Virus record (IMG/VR): IMGVR_UViG_2537561830_000002
Direction: 5' to 3' (one strand)
Length of the DNA stretch: 52,488 bases
DNA from: a virus
Taxonomy: Duplodnaviria; Heunggongvirae; Uroviricota; Caudoviricetes
Positions 1,445-52,488 of this stretch are shown piece after piece. The position numbers were made by a program, and so were the translations under genes. The first letter of the stretch is position 1. The number at the start of each line of letters is the position of its first letter. The notes under the pieces are model-generated. The model was not told the DNA's origin. It saw only the letters and a program-made list of their open reading frames with translations, and ran no database searches.

Positions 1445-1445
1445 T
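1399..1445. repeat. attL core: 47-bp direct repeat (3' part of thrW)
   Basis: attcgtaatgcgaaggtcgtaggttcgactcctattatcggcaccat is repeated exactly at 40857-40903. Confidence 0.85.
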
Positions 1446-1458
1446 TAAAATCAATAAG

Positions 1459-12697: not shown

Positions 12698-13084
12698 ATG
12701 CGTAATATACAGATGATCCTTGAACGTTGGGGGGCATGGGCAGCGAGTGATAGCTCAGGAGTTGACTATTCGTCTATAGCTGCTGGGTTTAAGGGGCTTC
12801 TTCCATATACCAGAAAGACACGTCTAGCTTGTTCAGATAGTGATGCATTAATTATTGAAGGTAGCCTTGCTCTTCTTAAGAAGAGAAAACCGTACGAACA
12901 TTCTTTGATTGTGGCTCATTACCTGTATGGCATCTCGAAAAGAAAGATCGCAAAGGCACGTAATAAAGACGAAAAATTGATACGTATCGAGATACAGGTT
13001 GCTGAAGGTTTTATCGATGGCTGCCTAAGTATGCTGGATGTGAAACTTGAAATGGATGACTACTCTGAGTCTCCTGTAGCATGA
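12698..13084 (+). CDS. late-gene antiterminator Q (P22 gene 23 type)
   Basis: MRNIQMILERWGAWAA...SIAAGFKGLL matches the P22 gp23 family from memory; GGAGAAAG RBS. Confidence 0.8.
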   Translation: MRNIQMILERWGAWAASDSSGVDYSSIAAGFKGLLPYTRKTRLACSDSDALIIEGSLALLKKRKPYEHSLIVAHYLYGISKRKIAKARNKDEKLIRIEIQVAEGFIDGCLSMLDVKLEMDDYSESPVA

Positions 13085-13695: not shown

Positions 13696-14110
13696 GTAAT
13701 TCCTCCAAAGCCTCAGTAGGAGTGAAGTATGGGAACAAATAATGATTATAATTATCGACTAATTGACCACTGTAAGGATGATAAAACTTACCTGTATGAA
13801 GCGCATGAGACACGTCATCATCATCGACGGGAATAGGATCACTATCGTCAGACTCGATATACTGGAAATGCATATCTAGCAAGTGCATTCTGTTGCTCGA
13901 AAGATAGTCAGTTACTTTGATCAGTAAAACTTTGGCATCGTTATTTTGCACATCAAGCTTAGTACCATTAACCAAACTTACATATGTTATGTGTTTCAGT
14001 GACTTAGCTTCTTTGCTGGTTAAAAAATCAACCACAACACGACATAAATCTCCAACCGGCCCATGTAGGTCGTGGTTGATTTTCGAGTATATGTCGTGTT
14101 TAGTTAACAT
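13688..14110 (-). CDS. cassette gene B: hypothetical protein (140 aa)
   Basis: ATG at 14108-14110 (the track ORF starts on TTG at 14116); stop overlaps gene C start by 8 nt; acidic stretch DSDPIPVDDDD; no motif recognised. Confidence 0.65.
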   Translation of the reverse strand: MLTKHDIYSKINHDLHGPVGDLCRVVVDFLTSKEAKSLKHITYVSLVNGTKLDVQNNDAKVLLIKVTDYLSSNRMHLLDMHFQYIESDDSDPIPVDDDDVSHALHTGKFYHPYSGQLVDNYNHYLFPYFTPTEALEELHE

Positions 14111-14120
14111 AATCAACTCT

Positions 14121-15218
14121 TTATGCAGCCTCGTCAGTGGCTCGCTTTCTCTGTATGCTTGATAGTGACTCTAACATCTTGTTGATTACAAACAAAATAT
14201 GCTCAATTGAGGAGCAACGATCTATGATTGCATCATAAAGGTGACTGTTCGGTTTATCAATCATAGCCCGTTTACCTGGCAGTATTAATTCTACAGGGAA
14301 AACTTGAGAAGCTGAATCAGTCAGATCCCAAATTTTACCGAGTTTGTATTTCGTTAGTATGGGACTTGCCTCTTCGCCCCCATGATGGTAGCTGTCTGAG
14401 CGCAAGCAGCTTTCACCCGGACGGAGTTTTAATGAGCTGGTGTTTCCATCTGATGTAAGAAATGACATCTGCGAGATTCTACCATCTGTTTGCTCGTACA
14501 TTTCTTGTACTAATCCAAAGAGGTCAATGGGCGCAGGTAAAGTCAAACCAGTAGTAGTTCTAATAAACTGATCAAGCAAAAATTGCTGTCGTTCCGACTC
14601 TGAACGAGGCATCACAGATAAATCAACAGTGAGCGCAAGTAAATGCAACTCGGGTAGAATCATTATTGTATTAAAGCACTGTGTAACTTCACGTGTTTTA
14701 CATTTGATTTCACCACCATTGGAGCGAAGAGCTAGCCCAGCATCGCTTAAATGGGTCGCGTCGAGTTCAATAGTTTCTGTGTAGTATGCTTTCGACGTAA
14801 GAATCGTTGTTTCTAAAGAAACTTTGTTTACGACAGAAAATGTAGTTTCTAAAAAATGAAGATCTGTATCAGCTGCAAGCAACACATCTTTAGGCAAAGG
14901 ATATGGATAGCTTTCGCAAAAAACGGATTCGTCTCTTTCTAGGGCATTTATATTCTCCCGTAGAGTTTGCACTTCTTCCGGTTCTAACTTATACAGCTTA
15001 ACTAAACGGGTCCCACTCAATAGTAAATTTTGCCATACTTCACCTATATGAGTACTTACAGCTTCCTGATCTACATCTTCTGTTGCTTGGAGCCTCGCGA
15101 TAAATGGGTCAAGGCCAACTGATGTGACACCAAGTGGTTCCCCCACAATTTTTTTTGTGAGCTTCCATCCAACACGTTCGGTGATATCTCTTAAAAGGTT
15201 GATCGTTTGCTCATTCAT
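14121..15218 (-). CDS. cassette gene A: hypothetical protein (365 aa)
   Basis: ATG at 15216-15218 (the track ORF starts on TTG at 15260); 10-nt gap to gene B; no Walker or other motif recognised; AT-rich. Confidence 0.7.
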   Translation of the reverse strand: MNEQTINLLRDITERVGWKLTKKIVGEPLGVTSVGLDPFIARLQATEDVDQEAVSTHIGEVWQNLLLSGTRLVKLYKLEPEEVQTLRENINALERDESVFCESYPYPLPKDVLLAADTDLHFLETTFSVVNKVSLETTILTSKAYYTETIELDATHLSDAGLALRSNGGEIKCKTREVTQCFNTIMILPELHLLALTVDLSVMPRSESERQQFLLDQFIRTTTGLTLPAPIDLFGLVQEMYEQTDGRISQMSFLTSDGNTSSLKLRPGESCLRSDSYHHGGEEASPILTKYKLGKIWDLTDSASQVFPVELILPGKRAMIDKPNSHLYDAIIDRCSSIEHILFVINKMLESLSSIQRKRATDEAA

Positions 15219-15299
15219 AAGAAACCCTTTTTTGTATTTTTTTGTACTTTTTGAAGGCAATTTAGATAGTCCTTAACATACTAAATTAACGAACATATT

Positions 15300-30005: not shown

Positions 30006-30536
30006 ATGAAAGGCTATATCACAGCAAGTGTAATTCTTGGAGCAGCGGCTATTTTTTCATCTCTCATAATCTCTGGCAACATCTCCTTTAAAGATGAACA
30101 TATTATTCAGTTATCTGGAGGAGCCATAAAACTTGGTGATGTTTATAAAGAAAATAAATTAATAAGTGCAAAGATTATTTTTCCAGATAATCAGGGTGAA
30201 CAGATTCTTGTTGTCGACGGCAATCCTGAAAACTTTAAGGAGGATTTTCAGGAGAAATTAAATAAAGTAATAAAAACTTTAAATGCGTCAAAGAAAAAAG
30301 ATGAAGAGAAAGTTAGCCTGGATAATTTAAGTGTTATTGAAGAGTCTAAACTAGAGCTCGTTTCTGCGGTGCGTTACTCTGCTCAGTATGTTCCTATGTT
30401 TACTCTGACGCTGGACAAAAAAGAAATTACCATGCCTAAAAATACGGTAATATTTCCATTTGCCAGCGATGAAACAGCTAAGTATTTAAATGAACAACAG
30501 CAAAAGTATAAAGATTCGTTGTTTCTGACTCGCTAA
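30006..30536 (+). CDS. AT-rich moron: signal-anchored/secreted hypothetical protein (176 aa)
   Basis: N-terminal hydrophobic helix ITASVILGAAAIFSSLIISG; Lys/Asn-rich; own terminator; marked AT shift versus flanking tail genes. Confidence 0.65.
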   Translation: MKGYITASVILGAAAIFSSLIISGNISFKDEHIIQLSGGAIKLGDVYKENKLISAKIIFPDNQGEQILVVDGNPENFKEDFQEKLNKVIKTLNASKKKDEEKVSLDNLSVIEESKLELVSAVRYSAQYVPMFTLTLDKKEITMPKNTVIFPFASDETAKYLNEQQQKYKDSLFLTR

Positions 30537-35598: not shown

Positions 35599-36582
35599 AT
35601 GCATCGTATAGACACGAAAACCGCGCAGAAGGATAAGTTCGGCGCGGGTAAGAACGGTTTTACCCGTGGTAACCCCCAGACCGGCACGCCTGCCACCGAT
35701 CTGGATGATGACTACTTTGACATGTTGCAGGAGGAGCTTTGCAGCGTTGTGGAGGCGTCCGGTGCCAGCCTGGATAAGGGGCGGCACGACCAGCTACTTA
35801 CCGCGCTTCGCGCGCTGCTGTTAAGCCGCAAGAATCCGTTTGGCGATATCAAATCGGATGGCACGGTGAAAACGGCTCTCGAAAACCTTGGTTTGGGAGA
35901 AGCCAGATTCTCTGGTCGTTTGTTAAACACGAATATTTTTAAAAGCTCTGGAAAATATATCCCAACACCAGGGACAAAAAAGATAAGGGTCATTGCCTCT
36001 GGTGGCGGTGGCGGCGGCGGTGGGGTTCCTGAAACAACAGAAAATCAGCAGGCAACAGCCGGAGCTGGATTGAGCGGCGCATTTATTGAAGCATTTTTCG
36101 AGGTTGATAATGATTTCGAAGTCAACGTTATTATCGGTGCTGCAGGTAAAGGTGGGGGAGCCGGAAGAAATTCAGGTAGTGAAGGTGGCACAACTTATTT
36201 CGGTTCCATGATAACTGCACCTGGTGGTACAGGCGGTGGCGCGGGGGGAGCATCTGCAAACACATCATATATTCAGGGTATTTCATGGGGTGCCAGTCCG
36301 ACATCGTCCGGTACTGTACTAAGAGCATTTCGCTGTAGTGCAAAAACACCAGGAGCAATGGTTATCTCTGTTAAAGCTGTAGCAGGTGGTACCGGGGGGG
36401 ATACACCATTAGGTTCAGGCGGTATAGGTGGTGCAAGTTCTTCATCATTCAGCGGACGTGGTGGTGGTAAAGCTGAGGGCTTTGGTGCTGGCGGAGGCGG
36501 AGCCTGCGCACCTGCTGGAAGTGAGGCTCAATCGGGAGGTGACGGTGCCCCGGGAATAGTTATTGTTGAGGAGTATGCCTGA
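35599..36582 (+). CDS. tail fibre protein: conserved N-terminus fused to a Gly-rich variable C-terminus inside an invertible segment
   Basis: N-terminus [40 protein letters not shown]; composition shifts after codons LGLGEAR at the inverted repeat. Confidence 0.8.
35888..35908. repeat. left inverted repeat / recombination crossover site of the tail-fibre segment
   Basis: ttggtttgggagaagccagat is a perfect reverse complement of 37324-37344. Confidence 0.75.
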
Positions 36583-36848
36583 TGAGTAATTTTGCTCTGA
36601 TTGAACATGGCGTGGTGAAAAATATTATTATCTGGGATGGAGAGGGTGATTTATTCTCTAATTGCGAAATTATAAATATTGATCATATAGATGCAGGCGT
36701 CGGTTGGTTCTATTCTGACGGAGAGTTTATAGCACCACCGGAACCGGAAATGACTGAATATGATGTTGGTAATATCGACGCGGTGATGGAAGCAGATACC
36801 AGCACCGCGCCGGGGGTTATCTGGCCAGTTCCACCTGAGATGGTTTAA
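36582..36848 (+). CDS. putative tail fibre assembly/chaperone protein (U-like, 88 aa)
   Basis: ATGA-coupled to the tail fibre gene, inside the invertible segment. Confidence 0.5.
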   Translation: MSNFALIEHGVVKNIIIWDGEGDLFSNCEIINIDHIDAGVGWFYSDGEFIAPPEPEMTEYDVGNIDAVMEADTSTAPGVIWPVPPEMV

Positions 36849-37104
36849 TCTCAATCAGAATGGGTTCGCCCTTCTTGTTAACAGATATTTCCATTCCTTC
36901 AGGGATTTCAGATGCAGTAAAAAACCAGTTATCTTCTGGTAATTCCACAGCCCCGGTCACGTCATGAAGACCGGGGATTACTTCAGTCAAAGTAACAGGA
37001 TTAAACAGGCGCACAATAAACTCTCCAGGAAAAAGCACTTGTTGATGGTCTTCCGTCGTACATCTGGCAGCGGACATAAAAACCTGTATTACTGACCTGG
37101 TCAT
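36817..37104 (-). CDS. alternative U'-like ORF or frameshifted part of the alternative fibre end
   Basis: Minus-strand ORF converging on U and overlapping the alternative fibre ORF by about 100 nt in another frame. Confidence 0.35.
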   Translation of the reverse strand: MTRSVIQVFMSAARCTTEDHQQVLFPGEFIVRLFNPVTLTEVIPGLHDVTGAVELPEDNWFFTASEIPEGMEISVNKKGEPILIEIKPSQVELAR

Positions 37105-37344
37105 CCACGATCATTGAAACGTGAACGTTATTAGGTGTGGCTTCGTAATCTGTTCTTATTCTTTCCGCTATGCTGATAAAACGTGAAAGTTTAGGTAGTG
37201 CAATTGGATAAACGACTTTAGCCAGCCCATTATCATTGGAACCACCAGTTCCAAATACTTCTATTGCACCATCTGACCAGCGTATCCATGCACCATTGAC
37301 ATTAGCTCCTCGCTGAATGACATATCTGGCTTCTCCCAAACCAA
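37001..37344 (-). CDS. alternative tail-fibre C-terminal segment (Sv'-like), no own start codon
   Basis: Minus-strand ORF beginning at the right inverted repeat with the same GLGEAR junction as the plus-strand fibre. Confidence 0.6.
37324..37344. repeat. right inverted repeat / recombination crossover site
   Basis: atctggcttctcccaaaccaa; perfect 21-bp inverted partner of 35888-35908. Confidence 0.75.
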
Positions 37345-37410
37345 CGTTTATGAAAATGCAGAAATAACGAGCAAATGGCATCATTCCTGCTTTTGTCAGG
37401 GAGATCTACC

Positions 37411-37965
37411 ATGCTTATTGGCTATGTACGTGTGTCAACAAATGACCAGAACACAGATCTACAACGTAATGCGCTGAACTGTGCAGGATGCGAGCTGATT
37501 TTTGAAGACAAGATAAGCGGTACAAAGTCCGACAGACCAGGACTGAAAAAGCTGCTCAGGACATTATCGGCAGGTGACACGCTGGTGGTCTGGAAACTGG
37601 ACCGACTGGGGCGCAGTATGCGGCATCTTGTCGTGCTGGTGGAGGAGTTGCGCGAACGAGGCATCAACTTTCGTAGTCTGACGGATTCAATTGATACCAG
37701 TACCCCAATGGGGCGCTTTTTCTTTCATGTGATGGGTGCCCTGGCTGAAATGGAGCGTGAACTGATTGTTGAACGAACAAAAGCTGGACTGGAAGCAGCT
37801 CGCGCACAGGGACGAATTGGTGGACGTCGCCCCAAACTTACACCAGAACAATGGGAGCAGGCCGGACGATTAATTGCATCAGGCGTTCCTCGCCAGAAGG
37901 TGGCGATCATCTATGATGTTGGTATATCGACACTGTATAAGAAGTTTCCGGTCGGAGATAAATGA
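37411..37965 (+). CDS. serine DNA invertase (Pin/Gin/Hin family)
   Basis: MLIGYVRVSTNDQNTDLQRNAL...LVVWKLDRLGRS...MGRFFFHVMGALAEMERELIVERT; catalytic Ser in GYVRVST. Confidence 0.9.
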   Translation: MLIGYVRVSTNDQNTDLQRNALNCAGCELIFEDKISGTKSDRPGLKKLLRTLSAGDTLVVWKLDRLGRSMRHLVVLVEELRERGINFRSLTDSIDTSTPMGRFFFHVMGALAEMERELIVERTKAGLEAARAQGRIGGRRPKLTPEQWEQAGRLIASGVPRQKVAIIYDVGISTLYKKFPVGDK

Positions 37966-38025
37966 AACCGTAGCACGTCGTATGCAAGAAGATCGTGCTG
38001 CGGTTTATGCTTATCACTTAAAGAC

Positions 38026-38895
<870 letters not shown>

Positions 38896-38964
38896 CTAAG
38901 TCTTTGAATTTACATAGTACAAAAAAAATACTTTTCCTCATAATGTGAATTAATTTTATGTTTC

Positions 38965-39030
38965 GTTTGATGATTGGACCGGTCTCGAAAACCGGAGTAG
39001 GGGCAACTCTACCGGGGGGTCAAATCCCCC
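38965..39030 (+). pseudogene. 3' fragment (about 66 nt) of a tRNA-Ser(CGA)-like gene; att-site scar
   Basis: ggaccggtctcgaaaaccggagtaggggcaactctaccggggggtcaaatccccctctctccgcca matches the serU 3' half from memory with one T-loop substitution; no 5' half present. Confidence 0.7.
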
Positions 39031-39623
39031 TCTCTCCGCCACTTTATCAATGACTTATCTCCCGACTTCCCGCCTTGCTTTTCCTAAACAGAACAATCGT
39101 AGAATATTCTTGAAGGGTTAGATCGTCACTGTTTTCTGTTCGATACTGTGACATTCAGCACTTGATTCGCTATGGATCTGACAGGAAGGTTTCGAGCGAA
39201 AATCTGCAGTTATTCAGTCGTTTTCTTATCGGTCACCATTATTCTTTTAGACATTGATCCTACAAAGCTGCCGCAAAGTTGGTGGTGGGAACTGAAGTTG
39301 CGTAGAGAAGGGGTCAATACCCGGGGGCAAACATGGGCTGGCAAAAGTGTAGCGGTATTAGGCGCAGCTATTTAGCCTAGTTATGTTTTATGAAAACTTG
39401 ATATCATATAAGTGTCTTACTTATTGGCTGTAAATAAGTTTTTCCTAAGGAATTGTTTCTTGAGTATCATTTGTAACTGTAACGGAATTTATAATCCTTT
39501 GCTTTATTGTTACGGTATTTTTTATCACACCCTATTTTTAGTGGTTTTTTATACTGAAGTTTGGCAAAGTGAACTTTATATACATATACTTCATCCTGGT
39601 TTCAGTTAAATTGGGTGGATGAT

Positions 39624-40367
39624 ATGGCAACTACATGTTCAGTTATATTGATTTTGGAGTCCTTTGATGTTTATTTCGGAAAAGAGATTGTGTTTCTGGA
39701 GAGAGGTTCATCTGTACTTGTCGACTCTAGCTCTAGAGATTTTTTCCTGACATATCCTGAAAGAGTGATAGTGGCGGATTTTGGCGCTGAGTTTATTAGT
39801 CGCTATTTGAAAGCTAATAACTTAAGGGATATTTCTGATTGTAGGGAATATCCATCTTATTTAAAAATAAACTTTGCTGACTTCAGTTTAATTAAAGGAT
39901 TAATTAGTTGGGCTAATCACTGTGCTGAATACATAGAAATTTTTGATGAGTCTATTGCTTTTACATGTCTCTCTGCATTTTCTTCTGAAAAACAATTTGG
40001 AGTATTTCTGTTTGGATGTTTGAAAAGCACAGGGGCTAAAGTTAAAACGATTATTCATACGGATTTATCTGCACCATGGCGTCTTAAGGATATATCATCA
40101 AGATTATATCTCAGCGAAAGTTTACTAAAGAGGAAATTGAAAGAAGAGGGGGTATCATTCAGTAAGATCATACTTGATGAGAGGATGCAAATGGCTGAAT
40201 ATTTACTCAGCACTCGTTGTTATCCTATTAGTAAAGTAGCTAAGGTCTGTGGTTATGCCAGTGTCTCATACTTTACTTATGTATTTAGACGTTATTTTGG
40301 TGTTTCTCCAAGTCAATACTCTCAGAGGAGTTCAGAAAGTAAAATTCTTACTCACCAGGGAATCTGA
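39624..40367 (+). CDS. AraC/XylS-family transcriptional regulator
   Basis: C-terminal double HTH (ISKVAKVCGYASVSYFTYVFRRYFGVSPSQY); AT-rich; alternative GTG start at 39615. Confidence 0.8.
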   Translation: MATTCSVILILESFDVYFGKEIVFLERGSSVLVDSSSRDFFLTYPERVIVADFGAEFISRYLKANNLRDISDCREYPSYLKINFADFSLIKGLISWANHCAEYIEIFDESIAFTCLSAFSSEKQFGVFLFGCLKSTGAKVKTIIHTDLSAPWRLKDISSRLYLSESLLKRKLKEEGVSFSKIILDERMQMAEYLLSTRCYPISKVAKVCGYASVSYFTYVFRRYFGVSPSQYSQRSSESKILTHQGI

Positions 40368-40408
40368 TCATTGTTCTTGCCCCCTTATTTCCAGACAGGG
40401 GGTGTATC

Positions 40409-40636
40409 TTAAGTTAACGTTACCCGCTGACGTCGATATTCTCGCAGAGAGCGATAACCCAACGCACTGTGCGGATGGTTTTCATTGTAATGTTCGATCG
40501 CCACTGCAAGATTATGCAATGCCGTTCTTACATTCGGTTTCGGCATGAACGCGATGTAGTCTTCCTTCATCGTTTTCACGAACCTTTCTGCCATTCCATT
40601 ACTCTGAGGACTGCTGATTGCCCATGAGGAGTACAA
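40409..40636 (-). pseudogene. IS3-family transposase (OrfB) C-terminal remnant
   Basis: [17 protein letters not shown]...[20 protein letters not shown] is an integrase-core C-terminus; no N-terminal part. Confidence 0.7.
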
Positions 40637-40856
40637 TTAAACGGGTTAATCAGTTTCTCCATTTGAAAGAAAAAAGACTTCTGTACTGTTTGATATCACC
40701 GCTATTTTCTTATTTTCTGTGCAGGTCGTAGTGGGACAAAACTGAGACACATAAGGCCTCACAATGGCTTGCAAGGCTTTACATGTTTTGATGTGGTGGG
40801 ACGTGTGAGCGCAGTGTTGATGGGGTAATGCTTTGAATTAGAAGCGGATTCTTATA

Positions 40857-40903
40857 ATTCGTAATGCGAAGGTCGTAGGTTCGACTCCTATTATCGGCAC
40901 CAT
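40857..40903. repeat. attR core: 47-bp direct repeat of the thrW 3' end
   Basis: Exact copy of 1399-1445. Confidence 0.85.
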
Positions 40904-41543
40904 CAACAGAAAACCCCGTAAAAGCTGCATTGTTTAGCATGTTTATCTAACGGTTTGTAACTTCTGTTCTAACGTCCGCTATCACTTACAAACGCCTATA
41001 CGTTGTTATGGGCTTTGGTAGTGTAACACGTATGGGCGAGTAGTTCCCAGGCTCAACCTCGTAACAAGTTCCTTTGAAGCTGGAAGACGTGCCACCGTCT
41101 CTAAACCTTCTACCAAAACTCTTAGCAAGATGTTCCACACCTGGCGCGGTGTCCAATGATGCTACACGTCGTGAGACGTTGCAGAGGATAAACAGGCTAA
41201 ATGATGGGAAGAGTTTTAAGTGCAATAGTGGATCAAAGCCCACCTCTTCAAAACCTAACTTGATCGGGAAAGAATCAAGCTCTAGCACGGTTTCGTCCAC
41301 CGGAGTACAACGGGTGCCTGATAAGAGAAGAACTGCTAAGACTTCATAGCTTTTGTGAAAAAGCCCTTTTTAGTGGATACGCCTACGGCGCTTATTTTTT
41401 GGTATAACCATCAAAGGCGCTTTATGGCTCCTATTGTCTTGAAAATGTATCTTTACTTGTATTGTGTTTTATGCGTAGTCTCCCTGTGTAGTATGTAACT
41501 TGTTAATTTTCATATGAATACAGAGGCAACACGATGAAAAACA

Positions 41544-41696
41544 TTGCAGCTATAAAACGTAATAACCGCAAGATTCACGCTCGTAAGTTCCTGTCTACGC
41601 CAGAGGGAAAAGCCTGGCTAGAGCGTAAACAGCGAGAGAACGAAGAAAGAAAACTCCTTAGTGAGTTGAAATGGCTTAAGGATTGAATCACCAGTA
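41544..41696 (+). CDS. small basic ORF (50 aa), hypothetical
   Basis: AGAGG RBS; Lys/Arg-rich; below the ORF-track cutoff. Confidence 0.35.
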
Positions 41697-42236
41697 GGCG
41701 CATAACACATCCAGCGATCAAAGATGTGTTTATGCGCCTGATAGTGAAATTATTAAAGTTTTTTAGTTAATGTAGCCATTGCATGAACGATGATCGCTAG
41801 TGAATCGATTTTATCTCGAGGGGTAAAATAGATGAGGTATATGATGGTAACAATTACAGCTAAAGTAATTGTGGTTCTGCAGGTTTTTAAAATGGATGAG
41901 ATAAAGCGCATAGATACCCCCTATTGATTTAACAATAGCAAAGTATCATTTATTTTTTATTGCACGCAACATGCAAATTTTCACATATAATAGTTTACTA
42001 TTCACTTTGTATGGTGTCAACAAGATGATGTGTTGTTTTGTTTGATTTGTTCAAGATAATGTTTCATTTTCTCATCTATATAACTTGTGTTTTAGATAAT
42101 TTCACTAATTGTAAAAGTTACGTATTGCTTAATAGCTACCTTTTTATCTGAAATCGGCGCAGACGTGATCAATGTTTAACGCGAAGATCAGCGGCGTCAG
42201 GTCCACGCAGCGACAATTCTCAAATATCAGGAGGCA

Positions 42237-42788
42237 TTACGCTTCCTGCTCTTTCTTAATACGTTGCACTGTCTGTGTGCTGACACTGAAATCTTTTGCT
42301 ACGCTCCGAATTGATCCACCATTCGCGAGAGCGGCAACAATTCCCGCTCGATCAATTGCTTTTCCATTACCACGTTTTGCTATACGCCCAGCTGCCTTAG
42401 CTGCGGCGATCCCTTCACGTTGACGCTCAAGCATCATTTCACGTTCCATTTGTGCCACTGCTGCAAGCACTGTGAGCATCATATTCCCTGCGGGAGAGTT
42501 CTTCCCTGTCTTAAAGTCTTCTTTATGGAAATGCACAGACACGCCGCGCTCTGTTAATTGCTCAACCGTTGCCAGTAGGTCGGCTGTATTACGGCAAAGT
42601 CGATCAATGCTGTGAACATGCAAAACATCACCTTCACGCACATAGTTCATCATTGCCTCAAACTGTGGGCGCTGGGTATTCTTGCCTGACGCTTTATCTT
42701 CAAAGACTTTATCAAGAGTTACTCCAGCTAATTGACGGTCTGTGTTTTGTTGGACAGTCGATACCCTAATGTATCCAATATTAGCCAT
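42237..42788 (-). CDS. small serine recombinase (resolvase/invertase family, 183 aa)
   Basis: MANIGYIRVSTVQQNTDRQ... catalytic Ser motif; C-terminal HTH; GAAGGAAA RBS. Confidence 0.85.
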   Translation of the reverse strand: MANIGYIRVSTVQQNTDRQLAGVTLDKVFEDKASGKNTQRPQFEAMMNYVREGDVLHVHSIDRLCRNTADLLATVEQLTERGVSVHFHKEDFKTGKNSPAGNMMLTVLAAVAQMEREMMLERQREGIAAAKAAGRIAKRGNGKAIDRAGIVAALANGGSIRSVAKDFSVSTQTVQRIKKEQEA

Positions 42789-43296
42789 TTTCATTTTCCT
42801 TCTGTGTTGATTTGTGTGTAGTGATTATTGATCGTGTTGATTAGGTGTGTAAAGGACTTTTTTCACTACGAAATTCGAAGGTTTTTAGTGTGGTGATTTA
42901 GCCTGCTTTATCACTACACGTCTTGCATGAGAATCATGTGGTTACGTTTTGGTAAAATTAGCAAGCTATTAAATAGTGTGTTTATTTTGAAAAAATAATT
43001 TTTTGTTGCATTAAAGAAAACTTGTTCGACAGATAATAGATTGATTTTTAATCAATAATTTCTGATAGTGCTCTGTAAGCCGCATTACACAAGGATTTGC
43101 GAAAGTGATGTAAAAGTGAAGAAAGCTAACATTGCACTTTTTAAGCTACTTTTCATTGAATTTTTAGTATGGAATTACATAAGGATTAATCATCAATTAA
43201 TCTTGAATTTAAGCCTGTTTTAGATGTTTAATTTTGGTAGCAAGAAACACTTTTAGAAGATCATTGCACAGATGTTATGTGATAAATGGATGTAAC

Positions 43297-43349
43297 GGTA
43301 GGTCACTGTGAGCTAGGGGGTAGGTCACTGTGAGCTAGGGGGTAGGTCA
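43297..43349. repeat. 2.4 tandem copies of a 22-bp unit (iteron-like)
   Basis: ggtaggtcactgtgagctaggg repeated head to tail. Confidence 0.7.
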
Positions 43350-43486
43350 ATTTGAACCACAATAAGACTAACGATAATACTAATAATAAAACTAACTATT
43401 AAACTATATAATATAATTCTTTTTTATCTTTATAAGAATAATTATAGGGATACCCGTTAGGGAGTCTAACGACTATCCCTTAATCT

Positions 43487-43514
43487 ATTGGCATTCGCCA
43501 GAACCTTGCACAAG
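43487..43514. repeat. left arm of an imperfect 28-bp inverted repeat
   Basis: attggcattcgccagaaccttgcacaag matches the reverse complement of 43830-43857 at 25 of 28 positions. Confidence 0.5.
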
Positions 43515-43829
43515 TTAGACTGATACTTCTCATAACACATAGTTTTTTGTTTGTTGATGTTAGTTAGTAGATCTATGTTCGCTAATGCCGCTCACAACGA
43601 ATATGTAATCTACTATGTGCAAATAGCCTACGGCTTGCGTAAGGCTAAATAGTCTTGCGCTGTGCGCAGAACGATAATTAACTAACTACCATCTAACGAT
43701 TGAAATTTACTTGTGCAATAACCTGAGCGTAAGCGAATGGTTGTTAGTGTCTATGCGCTGTGCGCTTCAATAGTTCCATTGATGAGGCTTACGCCAATCT
43801 AACGATCATCAATCATCTAAAATAAATTT

Positions 43830-43857
43830 CTTGTGCAATGTTCTGGCGAATGCAATT
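43830..43857. repeat. right arm of the imperfect 28-bp inverted repeat
   Basis: cttgtgcaatgttctggcgaatgcaatt. Confidence 0.5.
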
Positions 43858-44147
43858 AGAGTAGCGTTACCCCTTTGGGGATGCTAACGCATAACTATAG
43901 ATCAACCATCAAACAGACAAAAAAGAAAAATATGGTTTAAAGATGTTAGGTAGTAGATGAGATTCTACCCCTTAAATAAGCCTCTGGCGAGCTAAACAGC
44001 CTCTACATAAGGGAATGTATTGTTTTTATCAAAACCTCGTTAGAACGCATTTTAGAGCGTTTTAGAGAATAAGGAAGAATAGGAGTACTCGTAAGAGCAC
44101 GAATTGCTCGTAAGTGCATGAAAAAGATCGATTTTTTTCGGAAATGG

Positions 44148-44182
44148 TATTGACAAACGTCTCTTTCTGTGCAATAATAGGT
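44148..44182 (+). promoter_or_regulatory. candidate sigma-70 promoter for the small-gene operon
   Basis: TTGACA, 17-nt spacer, AATAAT; about 120 nt upstream of the first ORF. Confidence 0.4.
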
Positions 44183-44302
44183 ATTAGAGGGACAGGAATA
44201 GATTCTTATCCTCTAAATAATTAAACCAATGCACCGCACTTTGAAGCCCAAGGCTTGCAAGGTGTCTTTTTCTTTTAACCAAATAGAATAGGAGGTTAAT
44301 TA

Positions 44303-44485
44303 ATGAAATATTTCACTCCACAGGATGTAGTAGAAGCCTGGAAACGTGGTGAGATCAACCGCTTTAAAGTAAGGATGTATAGAAACACCGCTCGCCGTTG
44401 TGGTTATCCAGAGCGTGAAAAATGCTTTGACGATGCACTAAAAATTATTGATGAACTGCGTAAGGCAGAAGCAGAGAAAGAATAA
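44303..44485 (+). CDS. hypothetical small protein (60 aa)
   Basis: Strong RBS TAGGAGG; AT-rich. Confidence 0.5.
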   Translation: MKYFTPQDVVEAWKRGEINRFKVRMYRNTARRCGYPEREKCFDDALKIIDELRKAEAEKE

Positions 44486-44506
44486 TAACAGGAGAAGGAG
44501 AAAACT

Positions 44507-44674
44507 ATGAGCGAAACCAAGAAACCAATTCCACGCACTTACCTACACGTTGACCCTGAAATTTTCAAGATTTTATTTGCTGAAGCCAAGAAAAGGCAAA
44601 TTATGGTCAGTGATTTGATGTTAGAAATCATTACTGAAGCAGCAGAGAACATCAAACAAAAAAAGGGTAAGTGA
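44507..44674 (+). CDS. small ribbon-helix-helix-like DNA-binding protein (55 aa)
   Basis: Beta-strand-like PRTYLHVD followed by two amphipathic helices; RBS GGAGAAGGAG; assignment by pattern only. Confidence 0.45.
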   Translation: MSETKKPIPRTYLHVDPEIFKILFAEAKKRQIMVSDLMLEIITEAAENIKQKKGK

Positions 44675-44725
44675 TCCTCATTCACTTTAGTAGCGCATTA
44701 AGCGTGATTTATAAGGAGATTTTTA

Positions 44726-45352
44726 ATGATAAACCAGCCAACTTTTACAAAACACTATAACACGTTTGATAATATATCAAAGATTTACTCTAATGAATTT
44801 CCAGAAGGTAAGGTTTTAGATTTATTGCACATTGTTCTTTATTATAGATTTCTTAGTTATCAGGAAAATGGTCTTAATTGTTATGAAAGTCACGAAACAT
44901 TAGCTAAGATTTTTAAGTCTTCACCATCAACAATTAAACGTAAGATAAACGATCTTAAAGAGATGGGATTATTAGAAACATCCCCACATCCTGATCCGTA
45001 TATTTCATCTTTGATTTACAATGCTCTCCCTCTCACAGATGCACATATTACTCCCCCAGGAGAGTCATCACTACCTGATCCTTCTGAGAAAGAAAACGAA
45101 TCTAATGAAATATTGAATGTTTCAGAAATCATCGTTGAAGAAGAAAAACAGGAATCAGAGTTCCCTGAGCGGCCCGAAATTTTTACTTGGCTTCTTTCCC
45201 TTGATAAGAAGAAACCACCGCACGAAGAAACAGAAGATTTTGTAAAACGAGCATTAGATTCAAAGAATATCTATCTTTGTGAAAATGATTTTGACTCTTT
45301 GATAATTGATCTCAAAAGTGAGAGCACAATATATGATTCACTACCCTTTTAA
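44726..45352 (+). CDS. hypothetical protein with winged-helix-like N-terminus and acidic C-terminus (208 aa)
   Basis: AAGGAG RBS; LAKIFKSSPSTIKRKINDLKEMGLLE HTH-like segment. Confidence 0.5.
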   Translation: MINQPTFTKHYNTFDNISKIYSNEFPEGKVLDLLHIVLYYRFLSYQENGLNCYESHETLAKIFKSSPSTIKRKINDLKEMGLLETSPHPDPYISSLIYNALPLTDAHITPPGESSLPDPSEKENESNEILNVSEIIVEEEKQESEFPERPEIFTWLLSLDKKKPPHEETEDFVKRALDSKNIYLCENDFDSLIIDLKSESTIYDSLPF

Positions 45353-45661
45353 GGAGAATAAATGGCTTATAACATCACTATAGGAAACAAAACTATTGAA
45401 ATAACTGAGAGCGGATACCACATTTTAAAAGCTATTTTGGAAATAGAGTTCTCACCGCCGACAGTGGTTAGCTTTTAGGGTTTAGCTCCTATCATCATTT
45501 TTTGGGATTTAACGCTTTCAATAATTGTGTAGGTGGTGCATCGGAAGTCGATCTGATGGCTCATTTAGAATGATACATTAGCTTCTAACAAACGTTCTAA
45601 CTAATAAAATGATGGGCGTATGTATAAGCGCCCAATGAAAATATTCAAAAAAGGAAAAATA

Positions 45662-45865
45662 ATGATTGGCTATATTCAAGAAACACAATTATTTCAGATG
45701 ATCCTGTCTGATGCAAAAAACTATGCTGAGTTAATCCGACTGGCAAAAGAAACAGAAGACTACGAAGCATTAGAGCGTTATCGTGATGAAGTGCTGACGC
45801 TCAAGACACCTTTTAACATCGTATTGAATATGATTAATGATGCATTACAAGGAGAAGCCGCATAA
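45662..45865 (+). CDS. hypothetical small protein (67 aa)
   Basis: AAGGA RBS; helical. Confidence 0.45.
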   Translation: MIGYIQETQLFQMILSDAKNYAELIRLAKETEDYEALERYRDEVLTLKTPFNIVLNMINDALQGEAA

Positions 45866-46173
45866 TGGAAGAAGATATTAGCAATGCAATGGAACAACTT
45901 TTAGATCTGACTATCTCACTACAAACAAGAATAAATCAAGCCTATTCAGATTTATGCGATTACACGCTCTCTCAATGCGTTATTAGCTTAATGAAGGTGA
46001 ATGTAAGCCTTGACGATTTTATCTCTCTGGTGAGCGATTTAGAGCTAATTGAGGACGATGCCAAGATGTGCACTCAAATCATCACAGACACCGCCAGCAC
46101 GTTAAAGGCTGCAAGTGAAGAGATTCAGCAATTAGTAGATGATTTAGCAAAAAGTGCTATTTCTTCTAAGTGA
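45865..46173 (+). CDS. hypothetical acidic protein (102 aa)
   Basis: TAATG coupling to the previous ORF. Confidence 0.5.
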   Translation: MEEDISNAMEQLLDLTISLQTRINQAYSDLCDYTLSQCVISLMKVNVSLDDFISLVSDLELIEDDAKMCTQIITDTASTLKAASEEIQQLVDDLAKSAISSK

Positions 46174-47077
46174 TAATGAAAATCATTTGCATTTATAACG
46201 ATTTCATTATATAATGATATTAGGGGTAGATAAAAAGGTTTTGACTGGTGTTAATCCTTCTACTGTCATAAATCCCTGCATATGGAAGGTGATAGCCTCA
46301 AAGGTTGAGTGGCATTAACCTCTAACAAATATTACCTTCCATCTCTCAAGAAGTTTTAGAATAATCATAACTCCCTCTTTGATTGTTGATTGTTTCTACG
46401 TTGTGTTGATGAATGTTGTTAGGCATTGTGCTTAATTTTGATAAAAGCGGGTAGGTGTTATCTCCTTGCCCTTCCCGCTCTTATTTTTCATCTATGCTTA
46501 TCCTAAAGCTCCTTATTTTGTCAGAAAACATTAAAGAGCCTTACACTGATAGTTATATTTTATAACTATTTACTAACATCATTAAACTATTATTTAATGA
46601 CAGAAGTTAGTAACAGAATAATCTATTAAGTTGTTGTCAAAAACAATCATCTGCATAGCGTTAGCCGCAAGCAGAGAGAGTTTAGCTAAGAATGGTGCAA
46701 TAAACTTTGGAAATATTGATAGCAAAACGGGTTTTATAGAATGCGGATCTATAAGCTTTGGTTGTAAAAACGATTTTCTGAAACGGTAGATTACTGTTGG
46801 TGTAGTTAATCATTATTAAAAATTTAATCTGTGAGTAGATTGGAATAGTGATTCCTTAAAATCTGACTGGTGCATCCACACCATGAAAGATAGCGGTTGG
46901 CCACCGCGCCCCGAATAGATATTCCTGATTGATTCCGCATGTTTTCCTAAGAGCATGTTTTCAGGAGTATCTATTCACCCTTTAAGCATATCATCAAGTA
47001 TATTTAAAAAGTGTATTTGCTGATATGTTTAATCCTCTTATAGTTTAACTTATCAATTATGTAATTGCCCGCACGTT

Positions 47078-47127
47078 AAAGCCCCTTTGCTGGTCAGAAT
47101 TAACCTCTTACGGCATTGGGGCTTTTT
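47078..47127 (+). terminator. candidate terminator (GC stem plus T-run, long loop)
   Basis: aaagcccc...ggggcttttt. Confidence 0.35.
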
Positions 47128-47157
47128 ATTTGTCTGGCACTAACAGGAACGTTATTT

Positions 47158-47355
47158 ATGAAACAAGAAATGATTATCAGCAAAGACGGGGAAACGATGA
47201 TTGTTAGTGATGAAAACCTCATTAAGGTTGCCGCACTGTTGGGAATTACTCCCGAAAGTCTTCGTTCTACCACTGCTCAATTATTTAAATCGGCTGATGC
47301 GGTTAGTCTTGCTGATGCCCTTAAATCTAAAATTAAACAACTGAAAGGAAAATAA
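47158..47355 (+). CDS. hypothetical small protein (65 aa)
   Basis: AGGA RBS; first gene of a compact plus-strand cluster. Confidence 0.45.
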   Translation: MKQEMIISKDGETMIVSDENLIKVAALLGITPESLRSTTAQLFKSADAVSLADALKSKIKQLKGK

Positions 47356-47359
47356 TCTT

Positions 47360-47743
47360 ATGGCTAACCCATATGGAAAATTAAAAGCAGTGAATGCGGA
47401 TAACTCCCGTTCACGCTGTAAGGTAGTAGCTTACGCTGCTGATCCAGTGCTGCAAGATCGCCTCGTCAAACTGGCTTCACCTCTCACTGACGATCTTATT
47501 GTCGGGGCTTTGCTGAAAGCCGATGGCACCAAAGCAACAACCGCATCTGATATTGCTCACATAGTAGTTGAACCGGCTTATGAAGGACAGGAAAGCGTAG
47601 TGGTTGCACATCCTACTTTCGTTATTCTGGCTGAAGATGGGATTGAATTTAACAGCATGGAAAAGGCAAGTGTTATTGCAAAACTGCAATCTCTCGGCTT
47701 TGTAATTGCTAGTTATGAAGAACTTGCGATCCCTACGACTTAA
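47360..47743 (+). CDS. hypothetical phage-like protein (127 aa)
   Basis: Tight spacing with neighbours; AAAGGAAA RBS. Confidence 0.5.
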   Translation: MANPYGKLKAVNADNSRSRCKVVAYAADPVLQDRLVKLASPLTDDLIVGALLKADGTKATTASDIAHIVVEPAYEGQESVVVAHPTFVILAEDGIEFNSMEKASVIAKLQSLGFVIASYEELAIPTT

Positions 47744-47757
47744 CAAGGAAAATAATA

Positions 47758-48789
47758 ATGAATGATTTATCAACATATTTTGGCGTTAATACTGCGGTAG
47801 TAACTCCATTTGCTTATGAGAATGCACTTAATACCCTGATTACTAATCTCGATCTGTTCGATGTGCAATATCATACAGAAAACAGCATTCTTCTTACCGA
47901 CCTGATTGATCAGTTTGTGCAGGTAGCTGGGGAAACCTCACCTTACGCTCAAAGCGACTGGAACGCCTCTAAACGTCAGGAATGGTCAAACAAACTTTTC
48001 CAGATGAAACACGTCGGCAGTATTAACGCTGTTACTTCTCGTGACCTGGAACAATACAGCCGCCAATATCCAAACCGTTCTGATGCTATGCTGGTAGCGG
48101 TTAATGATTTCTCTGAGGCTCATTACCGTTCACACGCAAACCGTGTTGAAGTGGATCTGATTACCGCGCTGCTGGGCCTGAAAGTTGAATCTGAATATGC
48201 CGGACAAGGTGATCTCGACTTCCTCGACGGTCAGGCTAAAACCACGGTACCCGCTATCGACTTTGCATCGACAACTGTTAACCCGTTCCTTGCTATTCGT
48301 AAAGCGGTGCGCTTACAGAGTGAAAAGCTGGGGTCTGGTCTTGCTGCAAAGCGAACTGGTGTAATTATCTTTGCTGCTGGCGCTGCTGCTGATGGTTTGT
48401 CATCTAACCCGCTGATCAGTGACATGGTGAAATATGCAGGCGATGCGAGTGCTACGGCCCTGTTTACCCGTATGGTTGATTCTAACCCAGCCTATGACTC
48501 TTTCCAGATTGGTGGGATCACTGTTATTGATGTGTCAATGTTTCCTGAGATTGTTGCTCACATCGGAGAGAACGGTTTCGCAATTGTTCCGGTAATGGAT
48601 AAAGCGGCACAGTGTTACCAGCTTCATAGCGGCGTTGGTGTGCGTCATGCTGAGTTAGGTCAAGATGCCGTGTTGCATCACCAATATCTAATCAAGGATG
48701 AATTCCAATTCCCATCTGTGGTTACTGAGACATCTTATCTGCCAGTAAACAACATTCCGCAAGCTATCATCTTCGGATCTGCTGCGTAA
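47758..48789 (+). CDS. putative phage structural protein (major capsid or major tail-like, 343 aa)
   Basis: Size, composition and position upstream of a tape-measure-like gene; no direct family match recognised. Confidence 0.5.
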   Translation: MNDLSTYFGVNTAVVTPFAYENALNTLITNLDLFDVQYHTENSILLTDLIDQFVQVAGETSPYAQSDWNASKRQEWSNKLFQMKHVGSINAVTSRDLEQYSRQYPNRSDAMLVAVNDFSEAHYRSHANRVEVDLITALLGLKVESEYAGQGDLDFLDGQAKTTVPAIDFASTTVNPFLAIRKAVRLQSEKLGSGLAAKRTGVIIFAAGAAADGLSSNPLISDMVKYAGDASATALFTRMVDSNPAYDSFQIGGITVIDVSMFPEIVAHIGENGFAIVPVMDKAAQCYQLHSGVGVRHAELGQDAVLHHQYLIKDEFQFPSVVTETSYLPVNNIPQAIIFGSAA

Positions 48790-48940
48790 TAAAGCGTTAA
48801 TAGACGATTCCCCATCGGGGCAATAAGGGTAAAGGGATTAACTAACCTGTAGGCGCAAATACAGTAACGAATCTCTTTGCCCTTTTTGTTTTTCTACTGT
48901 CTACAAACCCAAATAAAAATATATATGTGAGAGAAAACCA

Positions 48941-49138
48941 ATGAATACAGAAAACCCACAATCCTTTATTCTTAAGGCTGTAAAAGAACTGGCAGCTATT
49001 AGCGATGACTCAATAATCAATGTCAGTGCCTTATGCAGAATGCTTTCAATTGATGCAAATAATGTGCGGCAGCGTGTGTTTCAGACTGGGTGCAGCACTT
49101 TTGAGGCAATCCAATATTATTGCTCTAAAAAACAATAA
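48941..49138 (+). CDS. hypothetical small protein (65 aa)
   Basis: GAGAG RBS. Confidence 0.4.
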   Translation: MNTENPQSFILKAVKELAAISDDSIINVSALCRMLSIDANNVRQRVFQTGCSTFEAIQYYCSKKQ

Positions 49139-49172
49139 CAAACAATAATCATAATACAGGGAAACAATTAAC

Positions 49173-51074
49173 ATGTTAGAAATTACCGCCTCACGAATTA
49201 GTAATGTTGTGACATTTACCACTGATTTCAAGAGCTTACAGAAAGCTAAGAATGAAGTGGATAAGCTACAAAAGAAGATGCAGGGGATCAAACCTGTGCA
49301 AGTGGCGGCAGCACGTCAGAAAGATTTACAGAGGCTGGGAAAAGAGATTCAGCGCCAGCATGATCAGCATGTTAAGCGGGCTGTTAAATCTGAGACACAG
49401 GCATCTAAAGCCAGCACTAAACAGAAGCTACAGGAAGCTAAAAACCTCGCTAAAGCACAGGCTAAACAAGCCTCAATTGCTGAAAAGGCAGAGATCAAGC
49501 GCCTTGCATCATATCGCCAGTTACAAGGCATCAAGAACAATTCCCGCTATGGCGAAGGGATGGATATTAAGAAATATCACGATGCTCTACGTTACATTAA
49601 GGAACAAACCCGCCTCTATGAATCCGGCGCTATATCGCAAGCGAAGATGAATGCCCTGATCCGTGACCGCATCACATTAGAAAGACGAGCCGCAGCCGCT
49701 GCTACGCGTCGTAATGCTGCCGCTGGGGGTGTATATCCAGTTACTTCTAAGAAGCTCCACAAAGAAGGTGTTAGCGGCGGTGGCGCGTTAATGATGGGCG
49801 GTGTTGGTGGCATTATCGGCGGCGCTGCCGTTGGCTTAGGAAGTATGGCTGTATCTGCTGGAATGGAAAAAGCCCGTGAACGTATGGAATTGCAGAAGAT
49901 GAGCGATCTGGTAGGCGCAGACTCCAACCAGGTGGCTGCAATGGTTAATTGGGGGAGGGCAAACGGTGTATCAAGTGCAAGCGTGGACAAGACCACTGAC
50001 AATATCAAAGACTTAAACGAACGCATTGGTCATCAAAGCCGAACTGCTGAATGGGATAGTAAGAAAAAAGAGTGGCGAGGCGGGGAAGGATCATTAAATG
50101 ATATTCAGAATGCCTTTGCATGGAACAAAGATAAGATAGCTTCCTACCAGGGGCGACCGCTGCAACTCCTGCAAGACGTGGTGAGAGAAGGTGAACGCCG
50201 AGGAATGACTAAAGAAGCCATCATATCCCTGATCGAACCATTAGCAGACGATGCCAGCCATTATCTCAAGATGTTTTCCCGTGATGGGGAAGAGTTCCGT
50301 AAAACGATGGTTGATATGGAAAACAACGGGCAGCTACTGACAGAAGCACAGAAAGAGCAATATCGCGCAGCTAACAAGACAGCTACAGCCTTTGACCGTC
50401 TGACAGATGGACTATCGAATCAGGCTATTTTGGGCTTCTTTGATGGCATAGCCAACATGCCAGCACTCAAACCGGAAGAAAGCAAAGCCTTACAGAATGC
50501 AGCTTATGGTGTTGGTGCATCGTTCGGGGATTTGGCTAAACAAGGCGCTGTATTACTGACCTCTATGACTTCTTACGGGAATCAAATCACAAGCTGGATT
50601 AATAAACATCTTAGCCGTGGTGAGAATGATAACCGACCTGAGACACAAAAGGTTATGGACGCTGTTACAGATGGGGAATGGTCGCCATCAACGATTATCA
50701 ATGAAGGTATTCGTTATGCAACTGGACTCGATACGAAAGATGTAGGGCGTATTGTGCGCGGTGAGGAAACACAGTCCGGCGTTCCAGGGTGGTGGACTGA
50801 TTTAATTAATGGCAATGCTAACAGCTACGGATCAACCCTTGTTGCACGTAAAGCAGAAGCCTATCAGCCGACTGTAAGCCTACAACGTCAATACGCAACT
50901 CCTGTTAACGTGAATGCACAGGTTACGGTGCCGAGTGATATGATCTCTGTTAACGTCATCCCTAACGGTCCCGGCTTTCAGGATTTAATCCGCACTGAGA
51001 TCAGAGCGAACAACAATCAGTTTAGTTCGAATCTGATTCTTAGCACGTTGTCAGGACAGAGTAGCGTTAACTAA
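49173..51074 (+). CDS. tape-measure-like protein (633 aa)
   Basis: Long helical Lys/Ala/Gln-rich N-terminus, Gly-rich hydrophobic block GGGALMMGGVGGIIGGAAVGLGSMAVSAG. Confidence 0.6.
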   Translation: MLEITASRISNVVTFTTDFKSLQKAKNEVDKLQKKMQGIKPVQVAAARQKDLQRLGKEIQRQHDQHVKRAVKSETQASKASTKQKLQEAKNLAKAQAKQASIAEKAEIKRLASYRQLQGIKNNSRYGEGMDIKKYHDALRYIKEQTRLYESGAISQAKMNALIRDRITLERRAAAAATRRNAAAGGVYPVTSKKLHKEGVSGGGALMMGGVGGIIGGAAVGLGSMAVSAGMEKARERMELQKMSDLVGADSNQVAAMVNWGRANGVSSASVDKTTDNIKDLNERIGHQSRTAEWDSKKKEWRGGEGSLNDIQNAFAWNKDKIASYQGRPLQLLQDVVREGERRGMTKEAIISLIEPLADDASHYLKMFSRDGEEFRKTMVDMENNGQLLTEAQKEQYRAANKTATAFDRLTDGLSNQAILGFFDGIANMPALKPEESKALQNAAYGVGASFGDLAKQGAVLLTSMTSYGNQITSWINKHLSRGENDNRPETQKVMDAVTDGEWSPSTIINEGIRYATGLDTKDVGRIVRGEETQSGVPGWWTDLINGNANSYGSTLVARKAEAYQPTVSLQRQYATPVNVNAQVTVPSDMISVNVIPNGPGFQDLIRTEIRANNNQFSSNLILSTLSGQSSVN

Positions 51075-51147
51075 GTTTAACGATAACTAATAATAAAGCG
51101 GGGGCAATATTTATTGCTTTCCGCTCATTACACAAGGATTAATATAA

Positions 51148-51439
51148 ATGGTTATCAAAGAAAGTCAGATCAACAGCACATCTAACATTAATACATCTAA
51201 CAGCAAGGTTAAATCTGATAACGGATTTGCCATTATATGTAGCAACCTGAATAACGAAAATGCATCAACGATAGCCAGTTATAAAGCTATTACTTTTGAC
51301 GCTGTTCCGGCAACTAAGGTTTCACGTTCTGCCGATGTTACATCGTATCCTGTGCAGGATGGTAATGATGTATCTGATAATGTCAGGATCAAGAATAATA
51401 AACTTATGCTTTCAGGCATTATTACAGAAACACCATTAG
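51148..51439 (+). pseudogene. tail-protein-like gene truncated by IS5 insertion
   Basis: ORF runs into the IS5 left end at 51440; only about 97 codons of native sequence. Confidence 0.5.

Positions 51440-52488
<1,049 letters not shown>

Follow-up and report, generated by a model that had tools for sequence, protein, structure and literature searches.

Several AraC/XylS-family regulators that act on the acid-resistance genes of Escherichia coli are encoded by prophages, and some of the closest described systems to the gene considered here belong to this group. AppY, specified by the cryptic prophage DLP12 of E. coli K-12, is a prophage-encoded AraC/XylS inducer of gadE and the AR2 acid-resistance regulon, and in the paper describing it AR2 is said to be regulated also by PatE and PsrB, two further AraC/XylS proteins of prophage origin (PMC10057817). 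According to PMC10877973, PsrA and PsrB (z1789 on O-island 50 and z2104 on O-island 57 in E. coli O157:H7 EDL933) belong to the same prophage-encoded family, increasing the expression of gadE/hdeA while repressing type III secretion, and z0321 on O-island 8 encodes the AraC/XylS regulator PatE. The same source, citing Bender et al. 2012, describes reduced expression of gadB, gadC, gadE and hdeAB in a patE-null mutant; it also places a PatE-responsive cis-element in the hdeA promoter between -132 and -45, a region to which PsrB binds as well, and gives eighteen genes, six of them LEE genes (locus of enterocyte effacement), as negatively regulated by PatE in microarrays (PMC10877973). In EDL933, the entry for Z0321 reads 'putative regulator (prophage CP-933H)', and the gene is reported to be strongly expressed and six-fold RpoS-dependent, at log2 12.4 vs 10.0 (PMC2907692). 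A 2025 preprint gives the name PatE to a presumed homologue in E. coli Nissle, overexpression of which is reported to raise survival at pH 2.5 (10.1101/2025.08.01.668021). The subject of the present work is a gene at positions 39624-40367 of virus record IMGVR_UViG_2537561830_000002 (Caudoviricetes), a stretch of 52,488 nucleotides which is referred to in its entirety as the window. An earlier note, made from the sequence alone, had described this gene as encoding a low-GC, prophage-borne AraC/XylS-family regulator which may modulate acid-resistance and virulence loci of its host; it had suggested a homology search as a check, and had named disruption or lack of expression of the gene, or clear orthology to a core-genome regulator with a known local target, as grounds for abandoning the idea.

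Judged by its sequence, the gene is patE, orthologous to z0321 in EDL933 (E. coli O157:H7), and it is thus an already characterised gene and not a new one. The homology search matched its product to WP_000246059.1 of EDL933, the two proteins being identical at 246 of 247 residues and the two genes at 743 of 744 nucleotides, with a single nucleotide difference (T65G) that places isoleucine at residue 22 here and serine in EDL933. In the family alignment the column that contains this residue is variable, and both proteins are members of the same 90% protein cluster, which numbers 1788 sequences. The EDL933 gene is located at 309101-309844 of NZ_CP008957.1, in the right-end part of CP-933H (O-island 8), a truncated prophage at thrW, and represents the only AraC-family gene of that prophage; the gene count from the integrase agrees with z0321. 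The 1.2-kb region around patE is 99.8% identical to many O157:H7 chromosomes, and the identical 744-nt coding sequence is annotated by RefSeq in O157 genomes. Synteny with EDL933 and FRIK944, accompanied by 97-99% DNA identity, covers positions 37329-40622 of the window. CP-933H is likewise a thrW-linked element, in which pin, the GIY-YIG gene, the AraC gene and an IS3 remnant follow one another in the same order and the DNA upstream of patE is 98.6% identical; however, CP-933H of EDL933 lacks the stretch between the replication genes and the tail fibre, whereas the window holds a complete SfII-type prophage of ~39.5 kb. The two loci also differ past the right attachment site (attR), where O157 has the P4-like element CP-933I and the window has a resolvase-containing, low-GC island.

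The explanation that best accounts for the whole, and to which we assign a probability of roughly 0.88, is that patE is a prophage-borne regulator of host acid resistance which acts in trans. PatE would be made from the lysogen, chiefly in stationary phase and under RpoS, and its C-terminal double helix-turn-helix would bind the AT-rich promoters of host acid-fitness genes (hdeA, gadE). Such binding would raise the glutamate-dependent acid-resistance system together with the periplasmic chaperones (gadE/hdeAB), and LEE/type III secretion genes, where present, would be lowered indirectly, so that patE would be a lysogenic-conversion gene whose target is the host chromosome in trans and not its own phage. 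The target genes, the acid-resistance phenotype and the RpoS dependence in this scheme are taken from the literature on the orthologue and would apply to the window gene by analogy. The proposal that the gene is host-regulatory cargo aimed at acid-resistance and virulence loci has proved correct, in that effects on gad, hdeAB and LEE genes are reported for the orthologous PatE, but it was not novel, the existing name of the gene and its literature having gone unrecognised.

The open reading frame (ORF) at 39615-40367 on the plus strand opens with GTG and would specify 250 residues, and an in-frame ATG at 39624, preceded at a distance of 4 nt by the Shine-Dalgarno-like sequence GGTGGA, gives the 247-aa protein described in the earlier note. 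The frame is uninterrupted, and no ORF lying antisense within patE exceeds 52 aa. The C-terminal part of the protein matches Pfam HTH_AraC in two stretches (E 1.3e-16, 60.7 bits, cutoff 26.6), and residues 158-235 match HTH_18 (E 8.7e-16, 58.4 bits, cutoff 33.6); the double helix-turn-helix spans residues ~140-235, and the protein is an AraC/XylS-family transcription regulator. For the N-terminal ~135 residues no Pfam family was matched, and the earlier note's account of this part, as a domain with no assigned ligand, still holds. The low GC content is likewise borne out: the patE coding sequence has 35.1%, whereas the remaining prophage averages 51.3% and the flanking proA has 54.3%.

Within this family, the best NCBIfam model was that of YdeO (NF007407), which was matched over the full length at 147.3 bits, below its cutoff of 348, while the model of GadX (NF007432) was matched by the C-terminal half only, at 110.7 bits against a cutoff of 500. 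Pairwise identity amounts to 34.7% with YdeO, 33.5% with GadW and 28.4% with AppY, and to 35.4% over 161 aa with GadX and 38.6% with EnvY, the last two values applying to the C-terminal part only. PatE has the branch, the length and the two-domain layout of YdeO, GadW and GadX, the N-termini align from residue 1 (MxxxCSVI...), and according to the literature a gadE/hdeAB regulon is common to all; these relatives, however, are core K-12 acid-fitness regulators, whereas PatE is phage-borne and accessory. On these comparisons PatE is a distinct paralogue in the YdeO/GadW/GadX/AppY branch and not the orthologue of a core regulator, with the identities of about 35% to YdeO, 33% to GadW and 28% to AppY disposing of the core-genome orthology that had been named as a ground for rejection. 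AppY resembles PatE also in its location, as appY directly follows the tail-fibre-assembly genes tfaD and tfaX (582-585 kb) near the right end of its prophage, but the prophage type and the integration site are different. PsrA and PsrB, despite their similar reported activities, are other genes on other prophages than patE.

The DNA-binding domain is 43% identical in sequence to that of GadX (3mkl; E 3e-24), and in a fold search it superposes on GadX, MarA, SoxS and AraC, with a TM score of 0.91, normalised to the target, for GadX. At the level of the whole protein, profile-based sequence alignment extends to CsvR, Rns and ToxT (E 1e-16 to 1e-22, 18-22% identity), for which full-length structures have been solved, and the N-terminal ~135 residues align full-length to this class both by sequence (E ~1e-16) and by fold. 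This similarity, together with the six LEE genes reported as repressed by PatE in microarrays, might suggest a ligand-gated virulence regulator of the Rns/ToxT type, in which fatty acids are bound between the two domains, such that a gut fatty acid would switch PatE off, with adhesins or type III secretion as the main targets and acid resistance as a secondary one. The details of the alignment do not favour such a function: the N-terminus of PatE is ~26 aa shorter than that of Rns, the alignment begins at about residue 44 of Rns, the segment that would hold a counterpart of Rns H20 is absent, and R75 of Rns/CsvR aligns to a variable V/R position that is not conserved. The fatty-acid pocket idea was consequently set aside as unsupported, the H20 and R75 contacts not being evidently conserved. 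The AlphaFold2 model, built from an alignment of 11 sequences (pLDDT 67.6, pTM 0.47), is good for the DNA-binding domain, of low confidence for the N-terminal domain and poor (<50) for the linker at residues 100-132; its top Foldseek matches were CsvR, Rns and ToxT (E ~1e-10, TM 0.39), and with the N-terminal domain and linker modelled at such confidence the fold search may be taken to support membership of the Rns/CsvR/ToxT class, the same overall two-domain fold, and not a pocket. Identity to these proteins is low, their regulon is another one, and YdeO, GadW and AppY, the closest relatives, are not known to be controlled by a ligand. Control of PatE by a gut fatty acid is therefore considered unlikely, and regulation of host acid resistance is retained as the preferred function.

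That patE is prophage-borne is evident from two 50-nt copies of the thrW 3' end in direct orientation (49 of 50 positions), which bracket the integrase, the full phage genome and patE, the latter ~500 bp inside attR. The window opens with proA (1-1254), followed by thrW and the integrase, and with Rfam's gathering thresholds applied thrW was the sole match in the window. From 18.6 to 35.9 kb runs the structural module, which shares 97% identity with that of the thrW-integrating Shigella serotype-converting myoviruses SfII, SfI, SfIV and SfV. Homology to SfII ends at 35903 and restarts at 40732 in the arm of the phage attachment site (attP), where 40732-40903 is 97.7% identical to the SfII gtrA-int spacer, and because of this interruption the DNA in between was designated a variable cargo bay, set between the tail-fibre genes and attP (Table 1). 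In SfII (NC_021857.1, 17.3-24.7 kb) the same bay holds an acyltransferase, an insertion sequence (IS) and gtrABC, and no patE, the acyltransferase and gtrABC being O-antigen-modification genes; the cargo of this slot has plainly been exchanged, with gtr genes in SfII vs Pin, PD-T4-3 and patE here. In its deviant composition and its presence or absence among near-identical phages, patE fits the pattern of a moron. The bay pairs the anti-phage defence gene PD-T4-3 with the host regulator patE, and the same pairing is seen in CP-933H of O157. It was also observed that pin, PD-T4-3 and patE are intact in EDL933 despite the loss of everything from the replication genes through the tail fibre, while the prophages of FRIK944 and of the window are complete; such retention would fit selection that acts on the cargo and not on the phage.

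At least 80% of a 1.2-kb patE query is present in 645 of the 5426 complete E. coli genomes (about 12%), the exact window protein occurs on about 40 contigs, and copies with 98-99% amino acid identity are carried by the isolated temperate phages PhiR70_1, mEp332 and ev099. The shared cassette, as delimited by local BLAST, corresponds to window positions 38980-40622 (~1.6 kb), and its DNA is 98.8-98.9% identical in ev099 and mEp332, and 99.1% identical in strain 673 up to position 40436. In the lambdoid siphoviruses ev099 and mEp332, patE and the same transposase remnant, which RefSeq labels 'integrase core domain-containing protein, incomplete', are situated between a tail-fibre assembly gene and int; in strain 673 the cassette resides in an IntS-type lambdoid prophage at argW, and in WY517-2, where homology begins at 39328, patE adjoins IS1 and rclA. 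The cassette is thus mobile, and no conserved local target of PatE was found among these carriers because the neighbours of patE differ in each. The PD-T4-3 gene lies outside the cassette and is not found beside patE in ev099, mEp332 or strain 673. These arrangements bear on the notion that the genes of its own prophage, whether PD-T4-3, the tail-fibre inversion module or lysogeny, are the main targets of PatE, as AraC-family regulators often control adjacent genes and patE and PD-T4-3 are divergently oriented across a 770-bp spacer. However, about 345 bp of that spacer are captured host DNA, the cassette follows lambdoid tail-fibre genes in ev099, mEp332 and strain 673, with neither PD-T4-3 nor pin, the WY517-2 copy sits beside IS1 and rclA, and the reported targets are host genes, all of which makes a phage-directed role very improbable.

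Relatives of PatE are also found at a second location, in that lambdoid prophages carry an 84% identical variant and 53% identical paralogues between their antiterminator Q and their holin, a slot that is occupied by paralogue clusters at 47-55% identity. This is the position used by Shiga-toxin genes, and because the 84% variant and the 53% paralogues lie there, the PatE-type regulator family occupies both classic moron positions. The 53% paralogue cluster was considered as a candidate for PsrA/PsrB.

Several points weigh against the assignment of patE as an active regulator of host acid resistance. The functional statements on PatE come from a review and from citing papers, and the equation of z0321 with the RefSeq gene, although consistent with the data, was made by elimination because CP-933H has only one AraC-family gene. 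That the I22 allele of this strain has the same role as the EDL933 protein is carried over from the orthologue. Furthermore, a promoter scan returned one sigma-70-like site upstream of patE, fewer than in shuffled controls, and patE sits among IS debris in low-GC DNA, a context which is often silenced by H-NS. No terminator was predicted after the stop codon, and by themselves the promoter and terminator scans argue in neither direction. It could accordingly be supposed that patE is a silent passenger, junk between IS remnants which H-NS, for instance, keeps silent here and which leaves host physiology unaffected: its GC content is 35%, truncated IS630-type and IS3-type elements lie on either side, the promoter scan was not above chance, and the expression on record is that of the orthologue. 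On the other hand, the frame is intact and near-invariant (at least 97% amino acid identity) in about 1,900 database sequences as well as being present in 12% of complete genomes, EDL933 has kept patE after the loss of most of the prophage, and the orthologue is reported to be highly expressed in an RpoS-dependent manner, its deletion lowering acid-resistance genes. The earlier note would have given up its idea for a disrupted or unexpressed gene; what was found is an intact gene with a strongly expressed orthologue, and silence of patE is regarded as very unlikely. Because it is widespread, and was kept in EDL933 despite the deletion of most of the prophage, patE appears to be conserved under selection, in agreement with a function in host regulation.

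The cassette further carries a scar that points to its origin. Its left 344 bp (38976-39319) align without gaps, at 97.4% identity, to nt 25-90 of K-12 serU and 278 bp of the serU-yodB spacer, and 5405 of the 5426 complete E. coli genomes gave a match at the serU locus. Strain 14614 (O111:NM) has at serU a lambdoid prophage with J, lom, a tail fibre and nleC, the right junction of which starts at exactly the base matching window position 38980 and runs through the same flank into yodB. From the phage-side arm of this junction, 196 bp are also present in ev099, mEp332 and strain 673, in which the junction-spanning stretch shared with O111:NM extends over 536 bp at 96-97% identity. On this alignment ev099, mEp332 and strain 673 carry a complete attR(serU), consisting of phage arm, core and bacterial arm; in an attP both flanks would be of phage origin. 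Only the bacterial part is shared by the copies of the window and of O157, the DNA to its left being different. Beyond the host flank follow, in order, a putative IS630 end, a private leader of ~250 bp, patE and a truncated IS3-type transposase. The IS630-family fragment is oriented with its outer end toward patE; the junction between the host flank and the fragment, which falls after CAATA, was considered as an IS630 TA target site and was ruled out, as it is the IS's 3' terminus that the fragment represents, and because the outer end faces patE the junction represents an internal truncation. Sub-threshold Rfam matches upstream of patE, to tRNA-Sec (25.6 bits) and to a plastid untranslated-region model on the opposite-strand T-arm, were dismissed as artefacts of the serU fragment.

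The complete fossil attR junction held by the lambdoid carriers suggests that patE was captured by aberrant excision, an event akin to specialised transduction, for which the lambda-bio phages provide a precedent. On balance, patE probably once lay beyond the attR of a serU lambdoid prophage, was picked up in this manner and was then recombined into unrelated backbones (SfII-type at thrW, IntS-type at argW), while it still resides in ev099, mEp332 and PhiR70_1; we hold this history with some reserve. The donor configuration in situ, with patE beyond the attR of a serU prophage, was not found, and a literature search on the serU scar returned nothing relevant. If true, this history would constitute an unusually clear documented route for the birth and spread of a host-regulatory moron, and the scar in any event offers a concrete and testable account of the origin of the moron and its movement between phage lineages.

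The window therefore adds one more copy of PatE, characterised since 2012 as an activator of acid resistance in enterohaemorrhagic E. coli, in a background other than EDL933. What is added here is modest: a fossil attR of serU, PD-T4-3 as a neighbour of patE, and the occurrence of the gene in isolated phages. As the label in RefSeq and in other sources reads only 'AraC family transcriptional regulator', patE will keep being rediscovered. With its presence in about 12% of complete E. coli genomes and in isolated temperate phages, acid-resistance lysogenic conversion may be more extensive than the O157 literature suggests. The coordinates of patE, its cassette and the surrounding elements are compiled in Table 1.

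Table 1. Positions in the window of patE, the components of its cassette, the prophage boundaries and features of the adjoining island.
Feature	Position	Strand	Basis or remark
attL within tRNA-Thr thrW (gene 1369-1444)	1399-1448	+	ARAGORN and Rfam tRNA; direct repeat
SfII-type thrW-specific integrase	1459-2622	-	ORF; 98.4% DNA identity to SfII int region
Variable cargo bay	35904-40731		Tail-fibre C-terminal and assembly genes, Pin, PD-T4-3, patE cassette
Pin invertase	37411-37965		Invertible tail-fibre end; in cargo bay
GIY-YIG nuclease-like protein, PD-T4-3 match	38026-38799	-	PADLOC 464 bits, E 2.4e-140, full length; Pfam LEM-3_GIY-YIG
3' fragment of tRNA-Ser(CGA) serU, nt 25-90 of native gene; fossil att core	38976-39046	+	Read directly; partial, so not called as tRNA
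Native serU-yodB intergenic flank (core E. coli DNA)	39047-39319	+	K-12 alignment
55-bp 3'-terminal fragment of IS630-family element	39320-39374	+	91%, E 6e-10, to end of transposase CDS plus terminal sequence on plasmid pJNE23-001_1; short match, tentative
AT-rich leader/promoter region	39375-39623	+	~250 bp private DNA; 98-99% in every carrier including WY517-2
Promoter-like site	39561-39590	+	TTGGCA-18-TATACT; not above chance, putative function
patE coding sequence, 247-aa AraC/XylS-family regulator	39624-40367	+	ORF, Pfam HTH_AraC/HTH_18 and EDL933 match
IS3-type transposase remnant (integrase-core C-terminus)	40409-40636	-	Pfam rve_3, E 6.6e-16; cassette homology ends at 40622
attR, partial thrW copy	40857-40906	+	49/50 direct repeat of 1399-1448
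Serine recombinase/resolvase	42237-42794	-	Second island
Helix-turn-helix protein	44726-45352		Second island
Dit-like fragment	51148-51462		Second island
IS	51508-end		

The second island, which extends past attR from 40907 to 51500, is present to at least 80% in 112 complete genomes. It contains an exact tandem 22-bp duplication at 43297-43340, and several of its ORFs between 47360 and 51074, a region of 35% GC, matched no Pfam or PADLOC family. Within the prophage, three ORFs of 211, 142 and 379 aa lie on the minus strand at 13060-15260 (40% GC), upstream of the lysis genes; no Pfam family was matched by them, PADLOC gave the weak candidate PDC-S54 (23.8 bits), and the block may be further cargo or a defence system. 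A 176-aa ORF that was assigned to no family occupies 30006-30536 on the plus strand, in a dip to 42% GC between the tape-measure and DNA-circularisation genes, and at the equivalent position of the collinear O157 FRIK944 prophage no gene is annotated. Finally, the replication-initiator-like ORF 8071-9012 contains, at 8359-8481, five to six tandem 15-bp iterons (TCAAAATCTGACxCx) that resemble a replication origin of the lambdoid type.

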